Of a stretch of DNA of 64,000 bases, positions 8,047 through 62,989 are shown piece by piece. The notes beneath the pieces were generated by a model. The model did no database searches. It saw nothing but the letters and a program-made list of their open reading frames with translations, and had not been told where the DNA came from. This stretch comes from Okamejei kenojei (taxonomy: Eukaryota), in NCBI GenBank assembly GCA_035221665.1, contig CM069148.1, forward strand, positions 11,160,001-11,224,000, in the 5' to 3' direction. Made by a program: the position numbers and the translations under genes. Positions within the stretch are counted from its first letter, which is position 1. Every line of letters starts with the position of its first letter.

Positions 8047-8207
8047 ATATTTTGCTCTCTGTATCTTCCCCTTTGCGCTACCTATTGTACTTGAGTTTGA
8101 CCTGATTGTATTTATGTGTAGTTTTAGTTGATCTAAACATAAATACAATCAGGACAAACTCAAGTACAATAGGTAGCGCAAAGGGGAAGACACAGAGAGC
8201 AAAATAT
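8047..8207. repeat. Near-perfect inverted repeat (71-bp arms, 19-nt loop)
   Basis: 8047-8117 is the reverse complement of 8137-8207 with 2 mismatches. Confidence 0.9.
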
Positions 8208-8559
8208 AATTCCCAGCATTGTGGCACACCAGTTACACGGACTAAGTCTAATGTATGCAATAGGGTAGAGAAGAATCAGATAGTACCCCAGCTTATGGAA
8301 GGACCATCCAAAAGCCGAATAACAGAGGGGCATAAGGAGAATAAGCTGCATCGCCAGTCCCTCACCATCACTGGATCTAAATACAGAGAGCGAAATATAG
8401 TTCTCAGCTTTGTGGCGACCAGTTCATAAATTAAGTCTAATGTACGCAATAGGTTAGGGATTAATCGGACAGCACTGTAACTTACAGAAAGACCATTCAA
8501 AAGCCTGAAACAGAAGGCAATACGGGGAAAAATCTATATCCGCCAGTCCTTCACCATCA

Positions 8560-42722: not shown

Positions 42723-42732
42723 ATGCAGAACA
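42723..42732 (+). CDS. PAX6: PAX6 exon 4 coding part (MQN+; whole exon 42678-42732)
   Basis: ATGCAGAACA|gtaagt, in phase with exon 5 (A|GT = Ser). Confidence 0.93.
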
Positions 42733-44720: not shown

Positions 44721-45261
44721 GGACCAATTTAGCAGGCGTTCCTAGGGAGAGAAGAACAGGTTCTCCACGAGCTTCCTCCAGGGACACGGTAGCTGTCTGA
44801 GGTCCAGGTCCGGAGTCTTCACGGGCTTGCAATTACTGCCCCACTTCTGTTTCTGATAGGCAAATGCAGTGGTTTGCGGTCGGTGCATTGGATTTCACTT
44901 GTGATTTCATGAAAATCGCGCTTCTACTTGCAATGTTGGGTTGAGTCGAGTTTGCAACGAAAATTTTGCGGTGAATTGTTGGTTGCATCGCTCGATTAAG
45001 TGCTCTCTCGTCCGGTTTAGCGAAACAAAATGTTGCTTTTGTTGGCTCACTGGTTTTAACGCGCTGTTTGGGTCGATTAGTATGTTGCATTTTTTTTCGG
45101 TTTGGGGCAATTGAATCGACGCCTTCTTTGCTAGTCAGGTATTTTGATTGGCAGTTTCTGTGTTCAGAGGGAAAGAGCGCGTTTATAGGTCAGTTTTTGT
45201 TTTGCAATTGGGATATCTGGCGGGATTAACCAAGGCCGGTGTGAGGAGCGAACGTTGCTGA

Positions 45262-45612
<351 letters not shown>

Positions 45613-45684
45613 TAATTTCTTTCGAAATTGGCAAACGAACAAGAAATTATCTTGAATTGATCGTAAAATGGTAATACTCCCCCC

Positions 45685-45743
45685 TGCCATTTAAGGGTTT
45701 ATTTTTGTATTGTAGACCCAATGTTGATGCAAAACAAAATTAA
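45685..45743 (+). pseudogene. Degenerate duplicate of the exon 5a acceptor and 5' half (pseudo-exon)
   Basis: tgccatttaagggtttatttttgtattgtag|acccaatgttgatgcaaaa versus tgccatttaaggtatatttttgtattgtag|acccatactgatgcaaaa about 124 bp downstream. Confidence 0.8.
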
Positions 45744-45838
45744 GTTTGAAACTTTTTTTCATAACTTTGGCACACGCCAAATTGATGCAATATTGGTACG
45801 TTTCCCATTGCCATTTAAGGTATATTTTTGTATTGTAG

Positions 45839-45880
45839 ACCCATACTGATGCAAAAGTCCAAGTAGTGGATAATCGAAAA
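45839..45880 (+). CDS. PAX6: PAX6 alternative exon 5a (THTDAKVQVVDNRK)
   Basis: 42 nt, tgtag|...aaa|gtaagc; homologous to human THADAKVQVLDNQN. Confidence 0.95.
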
Positions 45881-46009
45881 GTAAGCTCAACATTGTTTAA
45901 CTATATCTAAATATCTACATAAATATATACTATCAAACTAAAAGAGCCATTTCATTTGTTAAACATTATTTGATGTCTTTGCTTTCCACTTATGCTTGTG
46001 CACTTATAG

Positions 46010-46243
<234 letters not shown>

Positions 46244-46954
46244 TAACTTTTAACGGAGGGAATGGTGTATTTATTACCGTTAACGAGTGCACACATAAAA
46301 ACACCCTATTTGACATGGATTTTTTTTAGTATATGTGTGATTTCATTAACGGGACCACGAATCGAGATCTCATAGGCGTCGGTTTTATTACAGAAATGGT
46401 GCTTTTGATTATTTTTTTCCTCACAGATCACTTTAACCCAATGTTTATAAAGCCATCATCTTTAAAAGCTAAATACCCAAAGACGTGGAGCAAATGTATT
46501 TATATTCGGCAAAATTATAATAGTTTTACAATAATAATTTCAGTAATTATTTTCAAAATTTGTTTTAAACTTGTTAGTTAATTGATGAGGGTGCGTAAAA
46601 AGGCCGACCGTACAACACTCAAAATCAATTGCTGTAGATTCAGTTATAATTTTGCACATTAATTAAACCTGGTCAGCGGTGATTGCGAACTTAAAAAAAT
46701 ATTTCAAAGGAAATACATGGCTGTCTAGTTACGTAATCGCTAAGTAATTATGCTTCACTTAACAACAAAACCTGAACAATTCGTGTTCTTAATATGAAAC
46801 ACATTTCATAGATCAAGTGATATTGATTAGTTAACCATAATTCTTATATATAAATTATCTTTTACTTTTAGTTAAAATCCTCAAATTAATCGTCTTCATC
46901 GTTGATGTTTGACCCTCCCAAATTGTTCTTTTTAACGATATTTATCAAGAGTGA

Positions 46955-47176
<222 letters not shown>

Positions 47177-48819
47177 TAACAGGGAACGGATGCATATGGA
47201 TCCTGTGCGAGATTATTTGATTTTGGCATCGTGATCGGCACGGACATTGTAGGCTGAAGGGTCTGTTCCTGCACTGAATTGTTCTATGATCAATGCTCCA
47301 TGTCCTATAAGCGGCTAAATAGTCCAAAGTACAAGATGCTCCAGGTGTAACAGATAAGGAAAGAAATACAGTGCCAAGTATTCAGCTATATGATGAACAT
47401 CTAAGAGTTGGTGACCCACTGCAGGCTAAACCAGACAGTTGAAGTTTGTTCAACGGCCCTTTAATGACAAATCATTTGTTATCTTTGGAATGTGTTTCTC
47501 AGCTGCTCTCATTGCCAAGGCTCAGTGGAATGCAGAGACCTTCTGTTCTTTCATTTGAGGAGCAAATGTATTACATTCGGTCAACGTGAATGGAGAAACT
47601 CGGATACCAAGTGATAAAAATCAAATCAAAGGATGTATTTTCTATATTGCCCTCAAACCCATAGATTAATTCGTATCATGATGATTTTTGAACGTCGAAA
47701 CGCACCAACGCATAAAATGAGCAAATGACCCACTGACTATTCTCCCCGTTCTAAGCGGCGGGGCCGGTAAATGCGAATAACAATTTGTGTCTGTTTCGCG
47801 CTTTTATTGGTGTAAACGCGCGCCCCTTGCCTTGAGCGGATCAACTGGCTCATATAATGTCGCCATTGCTATCCAGTCCCTTCCACAATTTCGGACAAGA
47901 ATGTTATGTGCGGCGTAGCTTCAGAGCCCGGAAATGACCCATTCATTTGGCTACAACTTCGCTCCTTTTACCCTAATTTCAATATATATATATATCCCAA
48001 GTAACAACAAATTCACGCGGACATTAAATAACTAGAACGTATTTTATTGCGAGGGGTCTGATTAAATCACCGAGCGCCTTCACTTTCATCTTTTTACTTC
48101 TTCAATATAAAAACAATCTTCATTTAGAAAGAGTTTTAAAGTGCGTGACAATGCTGATAAGAAACAAAAACGTTCAAGCCCATTAACAGAGAGGGAATCG
48201 AAAGAATAACGAGGGAAAAACGAGGGAAGCATATTCCCGGATAGGATAGAAGAAGACATTAATTTAAAATATCTTAATTGGGGAATGACCTTAACCTTGA
48301 ATACTTTGCCGGAAGGTTAAGAAAAAACCTAGATCACATTCGGCAGAAACCAAATGCCTGGTGCAAATTTATTTAAGTAATCTTATCCCGTCGCACAATA
48401 ATCCTGTTGACAATGAAGAACGAAACTACTCCAAGGCCAGAGATTCTCCAAACCAAAAAAAATAGTTTCCAACAAACTACACTGTATGTTGCAATTGCGT
48501 CCCTTTAACTAAATTACTGTCCAATACTTTGAGAAACATTGTAAGATACAGGTTCAATGGTTCAATTGGTCAAAGTTTCACAAGTTTTGGACTTTACATT
48601 ATTGCGCGCAACTTTGTGCGGCTGATGCCAACTGCGCGGCCGACACCGTTCATGTTGAAGGTTAGCCGCTGTTTATTATCGCGATAGCGGTGAGATACTG
48701 TGCAGTGTAATTGGATGTGATGTTACTCGCTGGGTTAGAGGGGAGGGAGGCTGGGGAGGGGGCAACGGGGAAGGGAAGGGAGAGCGGCCAGTGAGGCACA
48801 TTTCCCCCCTTCCCGTGTA

Positions 48820-49260
48820 TCCCGTGTGTCATTAGTGAGCCTGTGAGTGGCAGTCATCAGCTCGGGGAGGAGGGATTTCGGCCACAACCTGCTTTTTGTT
48901 CACAGATTCAGCAACAGTGTGCGGAATATATTGTACAAAGGATGTTTCTGCCACACGCAAGAATTTGTTATGGGAACAATTCTGTCGCTATGTAATTGCT
49001 CATTAGAGAGCGTTTTGTTTCTCATTAAGCAACATGAATAAGCGTCTAGTTCTCGGAGACAGCTGTAGAAATGTTGCACGTGAGACCCCTGGACACCATA
49101 TCGCACCACTTGCCAATTAGACGTGTCAGCTTTCTGAGAAGCAAACAATATAAGAAGGGCACTAAAAAGATACACAGCAGCGGATTGCTTTCTGTAAAAT
49201 ATCCCCAACTTGTTATAGCACTCTTAATGAAGCCATCGACGCAACTAACAACCAATGTAT
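48820..49260. promoter_or_regulatory. Candidate intron-7 conserved enhancer (CE1-CE3 class)
   Basis: Repeat-free block dense in homeodomain/Sox-like motifs (tcattag, attgtac, aacaat, taattg, caattag). PAX6 intron 7 is known to hold several CNEs; assignment unverified. Confidence 0.5.
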
Positions 49261-52200
49261 TGCAACACAGGGGCGCTTCAGAAGTCCAGACTCCAAACTT
49301 CTAAACAACTTGAACTCGCCCCTCGTCCCAATGAGAGACAAACAAATCCTGGAACCCAACTATTGCCGAAAGACTCGGTGTGGGAGTACAGTTGTTTCTG
49401 CAGTCTGGAGCATTTGTAGATGTGAAGTGTCGGGGTTGTGATTCGGGAGAAGGCGATACAAACCTAACGCCCGTTACTTGCATTCAATACATTTAAAAAA
49501 AAAACGATAACCTTGGACTTTTGTTTTAAACCCCCCGTTTCGATGCTGCTTACTGTACAACCCGCTGAGAATTACATGCAGGATGTCATGGGTCACTGGT
49601 CCTGGCGTAATTTCAATAAATTGCTAGATGAGGCGATTTTTTAAAACAATAAAATGAGATTTTGAGATACTTCCTTTTTTTATGCCATATAGGAGCCACT
49701 ATAGAATAGTTATAGGTCAAGATTAAAATCACGGACATAAGTAATTACCACCATTTATTCCGTCCCATGGTGTGTTTCCCATGGCTTGCAAGGGTGGGCA
49801 ATAAACGCGAAGTGACTGCTAAGGCTGTCTGGATATTTTAGGTGAATTATGTTGATTGGAATCCCCAGGGATAGCTGGGGAAATCCAAACTTGTTTACTG
49901 CAATTACACGGTAATGATGTCGGTGGAGGTGGGATTTGTCTGACAGTTGTTTTAAGTAGTTAGGACCATGCAGGCCGCGGGGAGATTTCATACCGAGCTG
50001 AGACTGTTCTCCGTTCGAACCCTGGCTGCCTGTTTAATAAATGTACTCCACGGCAGAACCTAATGGGCTACTTCGGGCCTCAACAGAACAAAAATCTGCA
50101 TAACGTTTGTGAACTCGGAAATATTCCTCACGTACACTCACAGAGCCGACAGCAGAGAACGATATGTGTAGGAAGGAACTACAGAGGCTGGTTTACACCG
50201 AAGATAAAAACAAAATGTAACTCAACGGGACAGGCATGATCTCTGGAGAGAAGGAATGGGTGACGTTTCGGTTCTAGACCCTTCTTCAGACTGCGATATC
50301 ATTTGTTCTCTCTGAAGTACATGCCTCCACTCTGCCCATAGTTTTGTAAAAAACAAAGTTTCCCCTCTATCGTGCTTCTTTCTATTCGAAGCATTGTAAT
50401 GAATGCAATGTAATCATTGCAATCGCATTAACACAATCGATTGGCCGGTCGCTGTCGCACTGTTGTTTGTGCAAACTTGCTGAGGGTAAATTGGCTTCCA
50501 TCGCAAGCGAGATGCTTGGCAAGAGAGGGACCCTGACCCGAAAGGTAGCCGATCCATGTCCTCCGGAGATGCTGCCTGGCCCGCTGAGTCAGTCCCGCAC
50601 TTTGCGCCTTTTTTTTTTAAATTTATGTAAACCAACATGTGCAGTTCCTTGTGTCTACGAGAACGTGATTGGCAGATCATCTGAAAGATGCTACATTATC
50701 GCGAGTCCGTCAGTTACCAGTCTGAAGAAGGTTCCCAACCCGAAAGGTCCTCTGTCCATTCCCTGCACAGATGCTGCCTGACCCGCTGAGTTGCTCCAGC
50801 ACTTTGTGTTTTGCTCACGATTCCAGCATTTGCAGTTCCATGCGTCTTCAGATACTAGTCTCAGCTTGTCATTCCCTGATCCCGAAGTGTAATCATCGTG
50901 TTCTATTATACATTAAACCGAGGAGGGATTATATTACCAATGACAGCCGATTGTATCTCCGAGCTGTTTTCAGCAGAGAAAGGCTTTCCCATCATCTGTT
51001 ACAAGATATCATTGGTCTGGATTAGAACAACTCTACATTTCGCCATTAAAAAAAATAATGTCTTAATCGCATTATCAATTCCGACCATTAACTTTCCCTT
51101 AGCAAAGCAACTTGTAACCCCAACAGGAAATCTGTAATCACATCTCTCTCCGAGATGATTAAGAGCCACCCTCCACTAAATAGTCCGAAAAAGAACTCGA
51201 GAAAATATTGAAACTAAGCCCAAATCAGAATATCCATAAAAAATAAACGAAATAACCAAAAACATGGAAACAAGTTAGCCTATAAAGTCACGAAACAAGT
51301 TCGCTTCACTTCCTCATTATGAAATATTTCATGGAGCATCCGTCCCTGTGGCCAACTTGGTTCGACTAGTATTCGAAGTTATCTGACCCTTCATTACAGT
51401 CTTGCAGAGGAATGTTATTTTTACGCTTTCCCAATGACCCGACGATTAGTGAAAAAAATATGGCGATTAATGTTATTTCCAAGCCACGTGTTACGGAAAT
51501 ATATTGCAAACGAACTTTTACATGAAGTTAAACATGATTTCGGGCCTTGATGATTATTTCAATTAGCTCAACCATGCATGCAATATTATCCACAGTAGTC
51601 TTTTAATTCGATACCACTTTAAAAATATAGGAGCCACGAGGAGGGAATAATTGCTTTAATGTCCCAGTTCCAACGAATTGTTCCCCTCGATCCAACTGAA
51701 CGGCGACCTTTGTATCTTTGACCAATAAAGCGACACGGAGCAGATGTATTCCCCAAATAATAAACGGGACTCCTTTAAGAATATCCACACAACTTCTTAA
51801 TGCTCCGGATCCAACTCGTGCCTCGATGTTTGAGTAGGTTTTTAAAAGTCCATTATGTGAAGCGCAAGTCAGGGTTAGATCTCAGAGAGGGAGTATGGTT
51901 TCAGGACGATTTATGTCAACCGGCAGAGGAGAAAAAAATAATAGCAATATCGAGTGTGATAATAGTTTAAGGGAGACATCTTTATCAACCCTGTCCTTTA
52001 GATCAGGGAGTGCGACATTCTCCAGCGAATTAGGGGGTTTAAGCATCGCTGTGACAGTTTGTTCTTAATCTTTTTTTTTCTTAAAGCCTTCTACAGGATT
52101 TAGACACTTTTCTTTCACAAGGTTTATAGTGAAAGCCAGTGTGTTTCTCATCTGCGCTGGTGCGCTGAAGAGTGCCGCAATCCGTTTGCTATCTCCTTGC

Positions 52201-53079
52201 TTGTTTTCCGCGTGAATGATTAAGACACTGAGAAACTAAGGAATGATTTTATTTCCCAGAGCCTTATTGTAAAAAACAAATCCTAACCCCAGCGTCAGTT
52301 GGTCTGGCTGTGGGATAAAAGGACGCACATTTATCCTTCTTTTTACGGATTAGCTCTCAGGAGTAACAACACCAGGGACCGAGTTATTCAATTGGTTCTT
52401 TCGGAGATTTCAAACCGCCCTCCCCCAAAAAAAGACATAAAAGAAAGATAACTTAATTGTCTGTCGTTTGGTGTGTGTTTTTTTTTTTTAATTCCTGTAC
52501 CGCCTATATTTCAAAGACAATCGAGAATAATCGGTTTATGTCTGAAGAAATTGACAATATTATTGTGTTTTACTTCACCTGTATTCAAATACAGCGTATA
52601 TTGGGCATGGGAGCCTTAATCTATATTGCTTGCTCTATAGCATGTAGATTTTTAAGTAGGCTGATAGTATGTAAGGTGCATTTTGAAATGTTGTATTCAA
52701 CTAGAGTGATGGCTGGGAGCAGTTATTATTAAGTTTTAATTTGAGGTTTAACAGCAGAGTCCATAGTTCATTCGCCCTAATTCACCGTTGTTCGTCGGCA
52801 GCCTTGGTTGCAGTGCACAAACCCAAGCTTTCTCCTCGAAATGTTAGGATGGAGATGTAGCCAGGGTGTGGTAGGAAATCAGTAAAGCCAACGAATATCA
52901 GGTGGACGAGTTACTGGAATTTGGATATTTGATGGAGAGTGGGGGGGGGGGGGTGGAGGGCGTGTAGGTTTGGAGGCTTGGAAATTCGTTGAAGAACAGT
53001 TCGTTCAGATTCCTGCACAGAGCAACGGGAGGGAGAAAAAAAAAATGTAAAATAGAAAGCAAAGTTGATGGCAAACCGG

Positions 53080-53450
53080 GAAAATCGTGTCGCCCGCAAA
53101 TCCACCCAGGGAAGCTGTGCAGGTGCAAAGTGTTATAGATGTGGACATTGAACAGGGGATAATGGGGTCGATAAAAATGTCACATTTCGTCCTGCAAAGG
53201 CATAAAATAACGTTGCTCTGGAAATAACATGCTCCAGAGGAATAGTTTCCATTACCGAAAGCGACCAAAACAAATGACAAGAAAAACCTTACAACGTTTT
53301 GGGGGGACGCAACAACTAATATAAATGTAAAGGTTAATTTTGCAACCTGAGTTAAAGAAGATTTTATTTTCTTGTTAGCGAGCAGGCTGGCGCACTGAGA
53401 GAGTCTCATTCACACTGTTGTCCCAAATGCTTTGGCCCATTCTCCTCCTA
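53080..53450. promoter_or_regulatory. Candidate intron-7 conserved enhancer (CE class)
   Basis: Complex non-repetitive block with tgtcac/tgacaa and ttaatt motifs; position-based inference only. Confidence 0.4.
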
Positions 53451-54622
53451 TAGAATGTATACGCGTTGAACAGTCCAACTCGGAGGACATTGATTAATGA
53501 TAGTGCCGTACAAAGGTTAACATACTTCACTGAAAAGTCTGTTGACTGTGATGCTGAAGTGACAATGTGGAGAACTGCCCGCCTGAAGAGAATCCTTTTG
53601 TTGCCTTCCCGCGATAACTAGCGATTGTATTCTCAAAATTCTGCCCAAGAAAATTTGCCAAACCTTCTGGCCCGGGACTTTAATGGTTTCCGTCCCTATG
53701 CTGGCATTGTGCGCCTGAAAGGCTATTCAAGAGTTGGCGGCCACCGCAAAAGACATTTAAAAACCGCCCATATGGTGGTCAGGAACATAGAGACAATCTC
53801 TATTTTAAAGGAAATTCCTTAACTCTCGGAATTTTTATGTAGCTTGGCTTGTGAAACGCGGGTTTCCGTGAGTTTCTAAATGGGCTACGTTCAGAATGCA
53901 AGTGGGTTAGAATCATAGACTTTTCTTTAATTAATTAGGAATTGTGTGTGTGTGTGTGTGGAAATCGGGGTGCATCGTAAACCATTGACTTCGATGGCCA
54001 CATGACACAATAATGCTCGCTGGGTTTCAGCCTTAACGGCTCTTTAAAAGGGTTCGATCAACCATGAATCATATGAAAATTGTTATCTCATAAACCTTGC
54101 AAAGATGTGATTGAGCAGTAATATTGACATATGTTTACAGGATTCTGCTTGCTTTGTTGCCGGAGTTTAATAATGTAAGGTATGTGCTGACAGATGCACT
54201 TCTCTGCACTTGTTTGGTTGTTTAGGCATTGAATACAGTCCTCCGCTATTACAATCAAATATGAATCTAAGCAATCGGGGTCGCTTCAGTTAACCAAAGT
54301 GTTAAAATTTGGATTTATTATAGCGCTCGTCACAATTCTGTTCCTTTTTTAAAAAGTACTTATGTATCACATGTACGAGCTGTCCTTTATTCTATATATA
54401 AGAAAATTACAGGCTGTTATTACTGATAATATAATTGCCGCCAGGCTCAGCAGTGAGAGGCCAAGATTATGAGCTTTCAGACTTCTACTTAAATCAACGA
54501 AGAGAGAAATTCCGGAGTTTGAACTTCTGGAATGTACCGTCTATAAAGTTACTGTGTGACTTGGCGAAGAGGGGTTTGATTAAAACAATGACTGCAGTAG
54601 GGAATATGCGGTAAATACTAGT

Positions 54623-54895
54623 ATGTAGGAAGGAACTGCAGATGGTAGTTTACACCGAAAGACAGAAAATGCTGGAGTAACTCATCGGGTCAGGCAGCAT
54701 CTCTGGGGAAAAGGAATAGGCGACGTTTTGAGGTCTACTGTGGGCTCTTTAGCCATCGGAGCCCTTTTCATACCTCGAGTTTCCCTTTCCTTGACTCTCG
54801 GTCTGAGGAAGGGTCTCGACCCGAAACGTAACTTATTCCTTTTCTCACAGAGATGCTGCCTGACCCGCAGAGTTATTCCAGCATTTTCTGTCTAT
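54623..54895. mobile_element. Penelope-like inverted terminal pair
   Basis: gtaggaaggaactgcag...caggcagcatctctgg then ctgaggaagggtctcgacccgaaacg...gatgctgcctgacccg. Similar units occur at 19420-19630, 22990-23137, 50165-50840, 55297-55655 and 61320-61530. Confidence 0.65.
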
Positions 54896-56042
54896 ATTCA
54901 TGGAGAATACTAGTTTGAGATGGAAACTCTGGGGTATTGTCGTTTCAAATGGTAGTCTGCATATTAACAGTATCGGGATATTGTCATTTTGGGACTGGAG
55001 TTGGACTGGCCGTTGCACGGAGCTCAGCAATTAAAGACTTGTTCACTAATAGTGTAACAGAGACGCCGAGGGTTACGAGGACTGGCGACTCCTAACATCG
55101 TAGTTGATTCTATGGTAAATTTATCAAGTTATCAGAAGGTCCAAAAGTCTTGCCGTGACCTGTCCCTGTAGCCCGTCCGGTGCCAAACACTGCGAGTGGT
55201 TTCACACTTGGTTCCAGTAATCCAGTAAACAGGATGTCCTCTTGACCCATGAGGTTACTGCCGGCTCCCATCCAGATCGATGTAATAGCGCAGAGAGTGT
55301 AGGAAGGAAATGCAGTTGCTGGTTTAACAAAAAAGTTAAAGACACACAAAAAAGCTGGAGTACCTCAACGGGCCAGGCAGCATCTTTGGAGAAAAGGAAT
55401 AGGTGATGTTACGGGTTGTTTCCACCTAGCCCACAGCTAACAATGGACCTTGATTATCGTTACTTTTCGGCATAATATTTCGTTCATTTGTTCTAACCTC
55501 TCTCTATGTCACCGTTTACATGTCTCGTTTCCGTTTCATCTGACTCTCCGTCTGAAGAAGAGACTGGACCCGCAATGCCAACTGTAAGGTTTTTCTTCCT
55601 TTTCTCCAGAGATGCTACCTGACCGCTGAGTTATTCCAGCTTTTTGTGTCCATCTAATATTAGAGATTCTGCTATCTCTGAAGCAAAAGACCATGCCCGC
55701 TTGAAGTTGCAATTTCCCCACTCCCATCAATTTAACGTTAGCTTCATCTAAACAATCAACTCATTACATGTTTATTGGTGAATTAAGAATGTAATAGAAT
55801 ACGGGCCAGGCCATTATGTCCATCTGGTCGTGTTGTTAATAATGGGAATAAAAAATATTGGAACGAAGGATTGATAGTACAATGTATAAAAACGATTAAA
55901 TAATATGAAATGAATTATTTAAGCAGTGTTTTTTTATTCTTAAATGTAAAACAATAAAAATATGGGTAAATAGGTTGTATTGTATTTGGTGTAAACCAGC
56001 ATCTGCAGTTCCTTCCTGCACAAACTATTACTTAAGTCGTGA

Positions 56043-56327
<285 letters not shown>

Positions 56328-61812: not shown

Positions 61813-62500
61813 GTAAGGAGAGAGGGAAAACAATCTCCAGCAGATCTTTGGCAGCAGTGGGAGAACTGGATCACGAACGGGGAGGAGAGAAGGGGTGGGG
61901 GGGGGGGGGGGGGGGGGGGGGGGGGTGATTAAGTTCAGACGAGGGAGCTAGCAAAAATTAAAAACAATCCCATTAGCCCTGACCCAAAAATAACTCTCCC
62001 TGAAAATTATACAAGTTCCGCGTTTGCGGGTCAATTGAAACTGACCAAACTGCGGTTGATAGATCTGAAGAAGGGTCCTGACCCGATTCATCACCCATCC
62101 TTTTTCTCCGGGGATGTTGCCTGACCCGCCGAGTTACGCCAGTACTTTGTGTCTATCTTTGGATAGATGACAGTAGCGTAAAGTAATTGAGATTTTTTTT
62201 TTTAAACCGAAGCAGGTAAATTGAGTTTAAAAACAGATCAGTCATTGTCCAAATCTTCCGATGAATGGGAGTTGTACAGAGTCTGTAAGTGGGAGACTGC
62301 CGAGGGATTGGGTGGGGAATGGAAATAGGAACCAGTAAAATCATAAACAGCATAAACTGGACTAGGACATGGACTGGGCCTCTCTTCCCATTGTTCAGTG
62401 TACTAAATAAAATGCGTGCATTGGTTGATTAGAGCTTAATGAGGTGGCTATGGCACAGAATGTATCCTGATTATAGCGTGTTCTCATCTTCCATTTGCAG

Positions 62501-62616
62501 TGTCCTCTTTTGCCCCGGGCGCAATGCTGGGCCGGGCAGACACGTCTCTCACTAACACTTACAGCGCGCTGCCACCAATGCCCACTTTCAGCATGGCAAA
62601 CAACCTGTCTATGCAA
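62501..62616 (+). CDS. PAX6: PAX6 exon 11 (PST domain)
   Basis: [39 protein letters not shown]; 116 nt; gcag| and |gtaagt. Confidence 0.97.
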
Positions 62617-62715
62617 GTAAGTATGGACCAGAGCAAACAGAGTCAAGAGCCATTCAATGCTTTCTCTACGGCATGCACAAACGGATCTTGTGTTTTCCAT
62701 TTATTTTTCGACAAG

Positions 62716-62866
62716 TCGCCAGTATCCAGCCAAACGCCGTCATATTCCTGTATGCTGCCCACCAGCCCGACAGTCAATGGACGCAGCTATGACACGTACA
62801 CGCCGCCTCACATGCAGTCACATATGAATCCTCAGACCATGGGCTCTTCCGGCGCCACATCCACAG
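62716..62866 (+). CDS. PAX6: PAX6 exon 12 (PST domain)
   Basis: [50 protein letters not shown]; 151 nt; caag| and |gtgaga. Confidence 0.95.
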
Positions 62867-62989
62867 GTGAGAACCATCGGAAAACCTTCAGCAGCTCTGG
62901 CCCAGATATATACGAGTTAATTGTCTATGAAATTGCGCTTTTGTTGCCTCTCCGTTTCTCAACTAACCCACCTCGGCACAATTTTAACA

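Follow-up and report, generated by a model that had tools for sequence, protein, structure and literature searches.

A decayed tandem copy of exon 5a in intron 5 of skate Pax6.1, probably an inert pseudo-exon

Exon 5a and described cases of duplicated or unproductive exons

Exon 5a of Pax6 is an innovation of the jawed vertebrates that, as described in the available parts of the reports, is present in chimaera and little skate (PMC3554528, PMC4488758, PMC6925180), the latter record being for Leucoraja erinacea (PMC4488758). PAX6 is dosage-sensitive, transcripts with a PTC are thought to undergo NMD, and the ratio of the isoforms matters (in the accessible text of PMC6947179). Introns 5–6 of human PAX6 hold latent splice sites, the use of which leads to a frameshift and predicted NMD and can be read out with exon 5–7 minigenes; in the accessible portions of these studies, such cryptic sites and pseudoexons are activated by disease variants and do not derive from a duplicated 5a (PMC9863980, PMC11936725). 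An upstream copy of 5a is not mentioned for any species in the available text of PMC3554528, PMC4488758 and PMC6925180, and the text supplements of PMC4488758 show only a protein alignment and accessions. A search of the literature, with subscription journals outside its coverage, returned no report of a duplicated Pax6 5a, and the duplication described below is apparently undescribed.

The closest described arrangements are tandem exon duplications, in which an exon and its splice signals lie head to tail (PMC5740500; U2AF1 exons 3/Ab, PMC5224494; SCN-alpha exon 5, PMC12772994; each as far as accessible). The skate copy shares this layout as well as a spacing short enough to hinder joint inclusion, and a donor-to-branch-point distance of less than 50 nt is a recognised exclusion mechanism in the accessible part of PMC5740500. 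By contrast, the two members of a mutually exclusive coding pair are both in frame and encode equivalent peptides, whereas the Pax6 copy is frameshifted, bears a stop at codon 4, has probably lost its donor and offers no alternative peptide. By analogy with the accessible accounts of these systems, the copy would work like the dead outcome of a tandem exon duplication, mutually exclusive exons being another product of that process. With poison cassette exons in their customary definition it has so far one feature in common, namely that a dosage-sensitive regulator would, on its inclusion, acquire a PTC a long way 5' of later junctions; it differs in that the native donor is probably lost. It also resembles the decoy exons of SF3B1, OGT and ARGLU1 as an intronic, cryptic cassette that is non-coding and has a recognisable acceptor. 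These decoys, however, are highly conserved across vertebrates and lie mainly in retained introns of more than 1 kb, a predominant rather than absolute property, whereas the Pax6 copy is a decayed duplicate in an intron of 571 nt (PMC6097662, as far as available).

The Pax6.1 locus and its duplicated exon

The window, a stretch of 64,000 nt from the skate Okamejei kenojei (C18:11160001–11224000), contains Pax6.1, the coding start of which is at position 42723 and which has five coding blocks after exon 6, reaching to 62868. Among five cartilaginous-fish Pax6 models compared, that of Leucoraja fits best, followed by Amblyraja. The functional exon 5a (Table 1) is the exon known from jawed-vertebrate Pax6(5a): it encodes 14 amino acids in frame, has AG and GT borders and is placed between the 131-nt and 216-nt paired-box exons, 400 nt downstream of exon 5. 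Its peptide is identical to that of the Leucoraja, Amblyraja, Rhinoraja and Narcine models. The only other DNA match in the genome is a diverged paired box on C14 (near 15.76 Mb), which is Pax4-like by eye and uninterrupted at the position of Pax6 intron 5, so that there is no place for a 5a exon there.

Table 1. Features around exon 5a of Pax6.1, in positions of the window.
Feature	Positions	Strand	Description and basis
Pax6.1 exon 5, PAI subdomain	45308-45438	+	131 nt; tblastn with shark and skate Pax6; contig of an RNA-type run spanning exactly 45308-45438
Decayed upstream tandem duplicate of the 5a unit	45654-45778	+	Alignment to 45779-45856, weakly to 45877-45902
Acceptor core of the copy	45685-45715	+	TTTAA resembling a branch point, U-rich tract and TAG; differs from the 5a acceptor at 2 positions
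Predicted 8-bp stem over the AG of the copy	45695-45719	+	45695-45702 with 45712-45719; folding prediction only
Exon remnant	45716-45739	+	24 nt; 1-nt insertion, TGA at 45725-45727, putative 19-nt internal deletion
Putative paralogue of the 5a donor, GT to TT	45740-45745	+	AAAA/TTAAGT compared with AAAA/GTAAGC
Cryptic donor-like site	45796-45801	+	U1 pairing above 94% of 505 GTs; -4.9 kcal/mol; twin at 45671
Donor-like AAG/GTATAT inside the 5a acceptor	45820-45825	+	U1 pairing above 97% of 505 GTs; -5.7 kcal/mol
Functional exon 5a	45839-45880	+	42 nt, THTDAKVQVVDNRK; preceded by TAG, donor GTAAGC at 45881
Pax6.1 exon 6, RED subdomain	46010-46225	+	216 nt; tblastn with Pax6 proteins

Several further observations concern the anatomy of the gene. 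The intron 3' of exon 7 (47136–56120) spans about 9 kb and holds several dispersed-repeat copies. Exons 11 and 12 form a single open frame (62500–62868) with a 33-codon insert at the place of the expected short intron; the insert is also present within skate, stingray and catshark models (469–474 aa), which suggests in-frame intron retention or an alternative acceptor. Near 46010–46030, the Narcine, Hypanus, Mustelus and Heterodontus models pass from VSNGCV directly to exon 7, a jump that resembles the shortened exon 6 of human PAX6, as far as the latter is described in the accessible literature, and that seems to be an event common to cartilaginous fish. Some mammalian Pax6 models have a 25-aa extension 3' of exon 5, with or without 5a, which equals in size the use of a 73–75-nt intron-5 cryptic donor in human minigenes, again as described in the accessible reports.

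Upstream of 5a, the segment 45654–45734 aligns with 45779–45856 with 16–17 differences in 82 columns, which are divided into 11–12/32 in the distal intron, 2/31 in the acceptor core and 3/19 in the exon start. The offset between the two is 123 at the AG and 124–125 farther upstream. The strict local alignment score of 67 compares with a maximum of 32 among 2000 dinucleotide shuffles of the intron (0/2000 as high), and a 19-mer spanning the acceptor has exactly two occurrences in the 2.76-Gb genome, both at the Pax6 locus. A tandem duplication of 5a had been proposed in the first-pass annotation and is, by these two measures, real and restricted to a single locus. The stop-bearing body of the copy was likewise read correctly: it runs ACC CAA TGT TGA, a 1-nt insertion bringing the TGA into frame. 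Of the near-identical acceptor of about 30 nt with a period of about 124 that was claimed, the identity holds and the extent does not, as the copy covers at least 45654–45734. Homology beyond chance thus includes exon and flanking intron, and the inactivating lesions are found on one copy alone, a pattern characteristic of a pseudo-exon derived from tandem duplication.

Short local direct duplications (period 60–400, at least 45 nt, simple repeats excluded) number 17 in 263,653 bases with the 5a copy included, or about 1 per 15.5 kb; 12 of them come from 20 stretches of 10 kb and 5 from the window, and some are neighbouring transposon copies. Such duplication is a common event, and what makes this one notable is only where it lies. 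The possibilities of a third copy or of a 60-nt period were rejected, as the alignment of 45600–45653 to the spacer is non-significant (p=0.08). Upstream of the gene, a second decayed tandem duplication is found at 8192–8559, with a period of about 190, 77% identity and a divergence like that of the 5a copy.

The 3' part of the copied unit is less clear. A segment of 31 nt (45736–45766) aligns weakly with 45877–45902, which comprises the end of 5a, its donor and the following intron. Against 45857–45925 the best local alignment begins at the donor register in 5/5 scoring schemes (unanchored shuffle p 0.03–0.11), and with the longer target 45857–46009 other places outscore the donor register. 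When the alignment is anchored at the start of the spacer, 24 and 15 of 600 shuffles reach its score, in a test that was chosen after the alignment had been seen; for an 11-mer around 45740, the top match inside intron 5 is the 5a donor (9/11). Judged from these alignments, the whole exon was probably duplicated, in a unit of about 140 nt, and the native donor of the copy has probably been destroyed by a GT>TT change at 45740.

The age of the duplication can be approached through codon 3, the first base of which is G in the copy, consistent with Ala. At this codon Ala is found in 5/5 shark and chimaera genera retrieved, and Thr in 6/6 ray and skate genera and in the 5a of the window. On the simplest reading, the duplication preceded the Ala-to-Thr change and would predate the last ancestor shared by skates, stingrays and electric rays, with the dating resting on one letter and the chance of an A-to-G change on a branch of 0.2 estimated at about 10%. 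That ancestor is Mesozoic. The split between rays and chimaera is usually estimated to be much older than 96 million years; the latter figure, given in the accessible text of PMC10787021, was not used for dating. The divergence between the copy and 5a is far above the distance of the species to four organisms with which it shares 31-mers, which by arithmetic is about 1% per base. DNA runs of these four contain 0.76–0.78 of the 31-mers; a missing unit would cost 0.16, and the values fit presence and absence of the copy alike. In protein sets, 118 of 219 proteins have extra residues inserted where the exon 5 motif gives way to that of exon 6, 16 of these inserts being of cartilaginous-fish type (ending VVDNRK). 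All 16 contain one 14-aa 5a and none a second coding 5a; a stop-bearing form would be invisible in such sets.

Preservation of the acceptor and possible splicing of the copy

The AG, the branch-point-like motif and the U-tract of the copy are all intact, which would be the more surprising at the age indicated by the codon-3 letter. The acceptor is the best-preserved part of the copy, but the proposal that the splice signal is better preserved than the exon body does not reach significance in a direct comparison (2/31 versus 3/19 differences, Fisher p=0.27). Set against all remaining columns, the core gives p=0.011–0.017 with borders picked by eye; fixed windows of 20–40 nt give p 0.014–0.33, and a 31-column window with two or fewer differences appears somewhere in 12–18% of permutations (scan p 0.12–0.18). 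Part of this apparent preservation stems from selection on the working copy, which holds the 5a acceptor fixed, so that a comparison of the two acceptors shows the changes of one lineage only. This was taken into account in a frozen-copy model, in which the working copy is fixed in core, exon and donor, these parts showing the changes of one lineage and the free intron those of two, with borders set and donor-side differences counted by hand. The per-lineage divergence is then about 0.2 and 5.3–6.0 core differences are expected compared with 2 seen (one-sided p 0.039–0.062); with the working copy treated as fixed in the distal part too, p becomes 0.012, and the expectation across models is 5.3–7.3. 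As modelled from the alignment, the deficit of changes in the core is borderline and would leave a function possible without establishing it.

Folding predictions place both core differences in the 5' arm of the stem over the AG of the copy. Burial of the AG as strong as that of the copy arises in just 2, 15 and 10 of 700 random substitution-plus-insertion pairs in three settings. Equal burial is predicted for the genuine acceptors of exons 6 and 11 (0.10 and 0.00), and the U-tract plus AG of the copy is more open than in 634–636 of 700 pairs in two of the three settings; as a sign of silence, the predicted burial is suggestive at most. With the copy present, the branch-point region of 5a is predicted to be more open than without it in 4/4 span settings, and the predicted pairing of the 5a U-tract stays the same. 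At the working acceptor, folding predictions join the U-rich tract to the 20 nt with which 5a begins (45824–45859, −10.7 kcal/mol; z −2.3, matched by 6/200 shuffles), and this stem, for which a literature search found no paper, could be one reason for 5a being a weak, alternative exon.

Potential donors were ranked by in-register pairing with the end of U1, using its familiar motif, against 505 background intronic GTs, which is a crude measure. By this scale the real 5a donor (−4.5 kcal/mol) stands above 92% of the background. Both donors suggested for the copy in the first-pass annotation, 45744 and 45796, do have a GT. The former outranks only 8% of the background and was rejected as very poor. 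The latter pairs well and is nonetheless not a donor of the copy's own: as part of the upstream intron that was duplicated, with its twin at 45671, it was inherited rather than newly gained. A further motif, AAG/GTATAT (45817–45825), overlaps the branch-point and U-tract region of 5a, and U1 bound at this place might repress 5a. The counterpart of the motif in the copy contains both core changes.

Starting at 45716, exons of 80 nt (to 45795), 104 nt (to 45819) or 165 nt (with the 5a donor shared) are conceivable. All three have TGA at codon 4 with at least five coding exons following, which is the PTC arrangement of a poison exon, and the 165-nt form is stopped a second time by the TAG of 5a itself; by analogy, NMD would be the expected fate of such transcripts. 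The 80- and 104-nt forms would exclude 5a, because they end only 43 and 19 nt before its acceptor; by distance alone, 45796 and 45820 both fall below the limit of 50 nt from donor to branch point. Re-initiation after the stop to give a paired-less Pax6 was given little weight, as the exon-7 AUG is preceded by out-of-frame AUG frames, either three short or two longer.

Contigs were aligned from 4 of 6 runs whose RNA nature is guessed rather than on record. Two of the four, from one sample, reach no further than exon 5 and the tail of intron 4 and leave the copy uncovered, as they do the positive controls 5a and exon 6, so that the blank at the copy carries no weight; the other two gave nothing. 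One contig stops exactly at 45438, which fits a junction to a non-G base, and 5a and the copy, both beginning with ACCCA, are indistinguishable by it. Word shares of 0.37 and 0.35 are nearer to the exons plus the tail of intron 4 (0.36) than to a model of the 165-nt form (0.49), and are not evidential, the positions of the words being undefined. At 45200–45337, contigs of two runs (one sample) lead from the end of intron 4 into exon 5 at a depth of about 7; this signal could stem from DNA, from a retained intron or from transcription at an internal promoter. At 45283, an ATG in frame agrees with the MFAVA start of skate models.

Readings of the copy and their meaning

On balance, the tandem duplicate of 5a is probably an old, functionless pseudo-exon that is likely skipped and has probably lost its own donor. 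A unit of about 140 nt, running from about 62 nt upstream in the intron, through the 42-nt exon and its donor, to about 25 nt downstream, would have been duplicated head to tail, and the upstream copy then likely disabled by GT>TT in the donor, a 19-nt deletion and a 1-nt insertion, because a second 5a would disturb a dosage-sensitive gene. With no downstream donor, exon definition would fail and an orphan acceptor would be left to decay. This reading is consistent with homology that spans intron, exon start and probably donor register, with exon lesions confined to the upstream copy next to a working 5a that is the same as in other skates, with the ordinary rate of such duplications and with the 16 cartilaginous-fish-type inserts, which show no sign of a coding second copy. 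It also agrees with the outcome of the Fisher and scan tests for the acceptor, and with two core changes predicted to pair the AG more strongly than nearly all random pairs. Against it stand the 2 core differences where 5.3–7.3 are expected (p 0.012–0.062) in an acceptor with all its elements intact, the pairing of 45796 and 45820 with U1, which is as good as that of the real 5a donor, and the weak alignment of the donor paralogue; nor is a buried AG proof of silence, given the acceptors of exons 6 and 11.

A selected poison exon or competing 3' splice site, in which exon 5 is joined to 45716 and the new exon closes at 45796, 45820 or the 5a donor, is unlikely, although it is the best placed of the alternatives. 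It would explain the intact acceptor with its borderline deficit of changes, it could draw on plausible cryptic donors, a stop is present in every form, and both the exclusion mechanism based on a spacing below 50 nt (PMC5740500) and the dosage sensitivity, presumed NMD and isoform ratio of PAX6 (PMC6947179), in the accessible text of either, would suit it. If true, the 80- and 104-nt forms would exclude 5a and the 165-nt form would replace it, lowering Pax6(5a) or total Pax6. However, the native donor is probably destroyed, 45796 came along with the ancestral intron when that was duplicated, the sign of conservation does not hold up in the scan test, and the core changes are predicted to pair the AG. 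A more specific version is somewhat less likely still: a 5a duplicate ancestral to all skates and rays, with its coding body destroyed and its acceptor kept, would pair with the donor-like sites ahead of 5a and so set Pax6/Pax6(5a) in the eyes of rays. Such a cassette would be stop-bearing and sterically exclusive with 5a, a poison exon born from its own target exon.

On a par with that version is a role as an unspliced modulator, in which the orphan acceptor binds U2AF/SF1 or alters folding and thereby shifts inclusion of 5a or retention of intron 5. The borderline retention of the core and the predicted opening of the 5a branch-point region would favour it, and decoy exons do work without efficient splicing; yet, in the accessible text, those decoys are highly conserved and reside mainly in retained introns above 1 kb, unlike intron 5 of Pax6.1 (PMC6097662), and the 5a U-tract is predicted to pair in the same way with or without the copy. 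With the two functional alternatives added together, the poison or decoy idea has a real minority chance and is still improbable. What stands of the original interpretation is the duplication, the stop-bearing copy and the near-intact acceptor; the poison or decoy role is not supported so far, as the native donor is likely destroyed, the excess conservation of the acceptor is borderline, duplications are common and the intron is short of 1 kb.

Gene conversion is more doubtful again: the copy would be inert and its acceptor core refreshed from the working copy 123 nt away, mimicking selection, as the patchy identity (11/32 distal, then 2/31, then 3/19 differing) might suggest, but this patchiness is within chance by the scan test. 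Conversion tracts between copies so short and diverged are also uncommon. An assembly artefact, considered from the outset as a possible refutation, is largely refuted and extremely improbable, because the copies, with 16/82 columns differing and a long gap besides, diverge far beyond what alleles or read errors would allow, and 107/107 sampled 31-mers of 45250–46260 are present in contigs of 5 runs from 2 samples, although these five runs with all words are perhaps the assembly's own source and hence non-independent.

As an inert relic, the copy is a small, datable record of the duplication and decay of an exon in a highly constrained developmental gene, and possibly a marker common to rays and skates. 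If its acceptor is used or selected, it would illustrate how duplication of an exon can give rise to a poison exon that controls the original, and would offer a natural means of studying what sets the Pax6/Pax6(5a) ratio.
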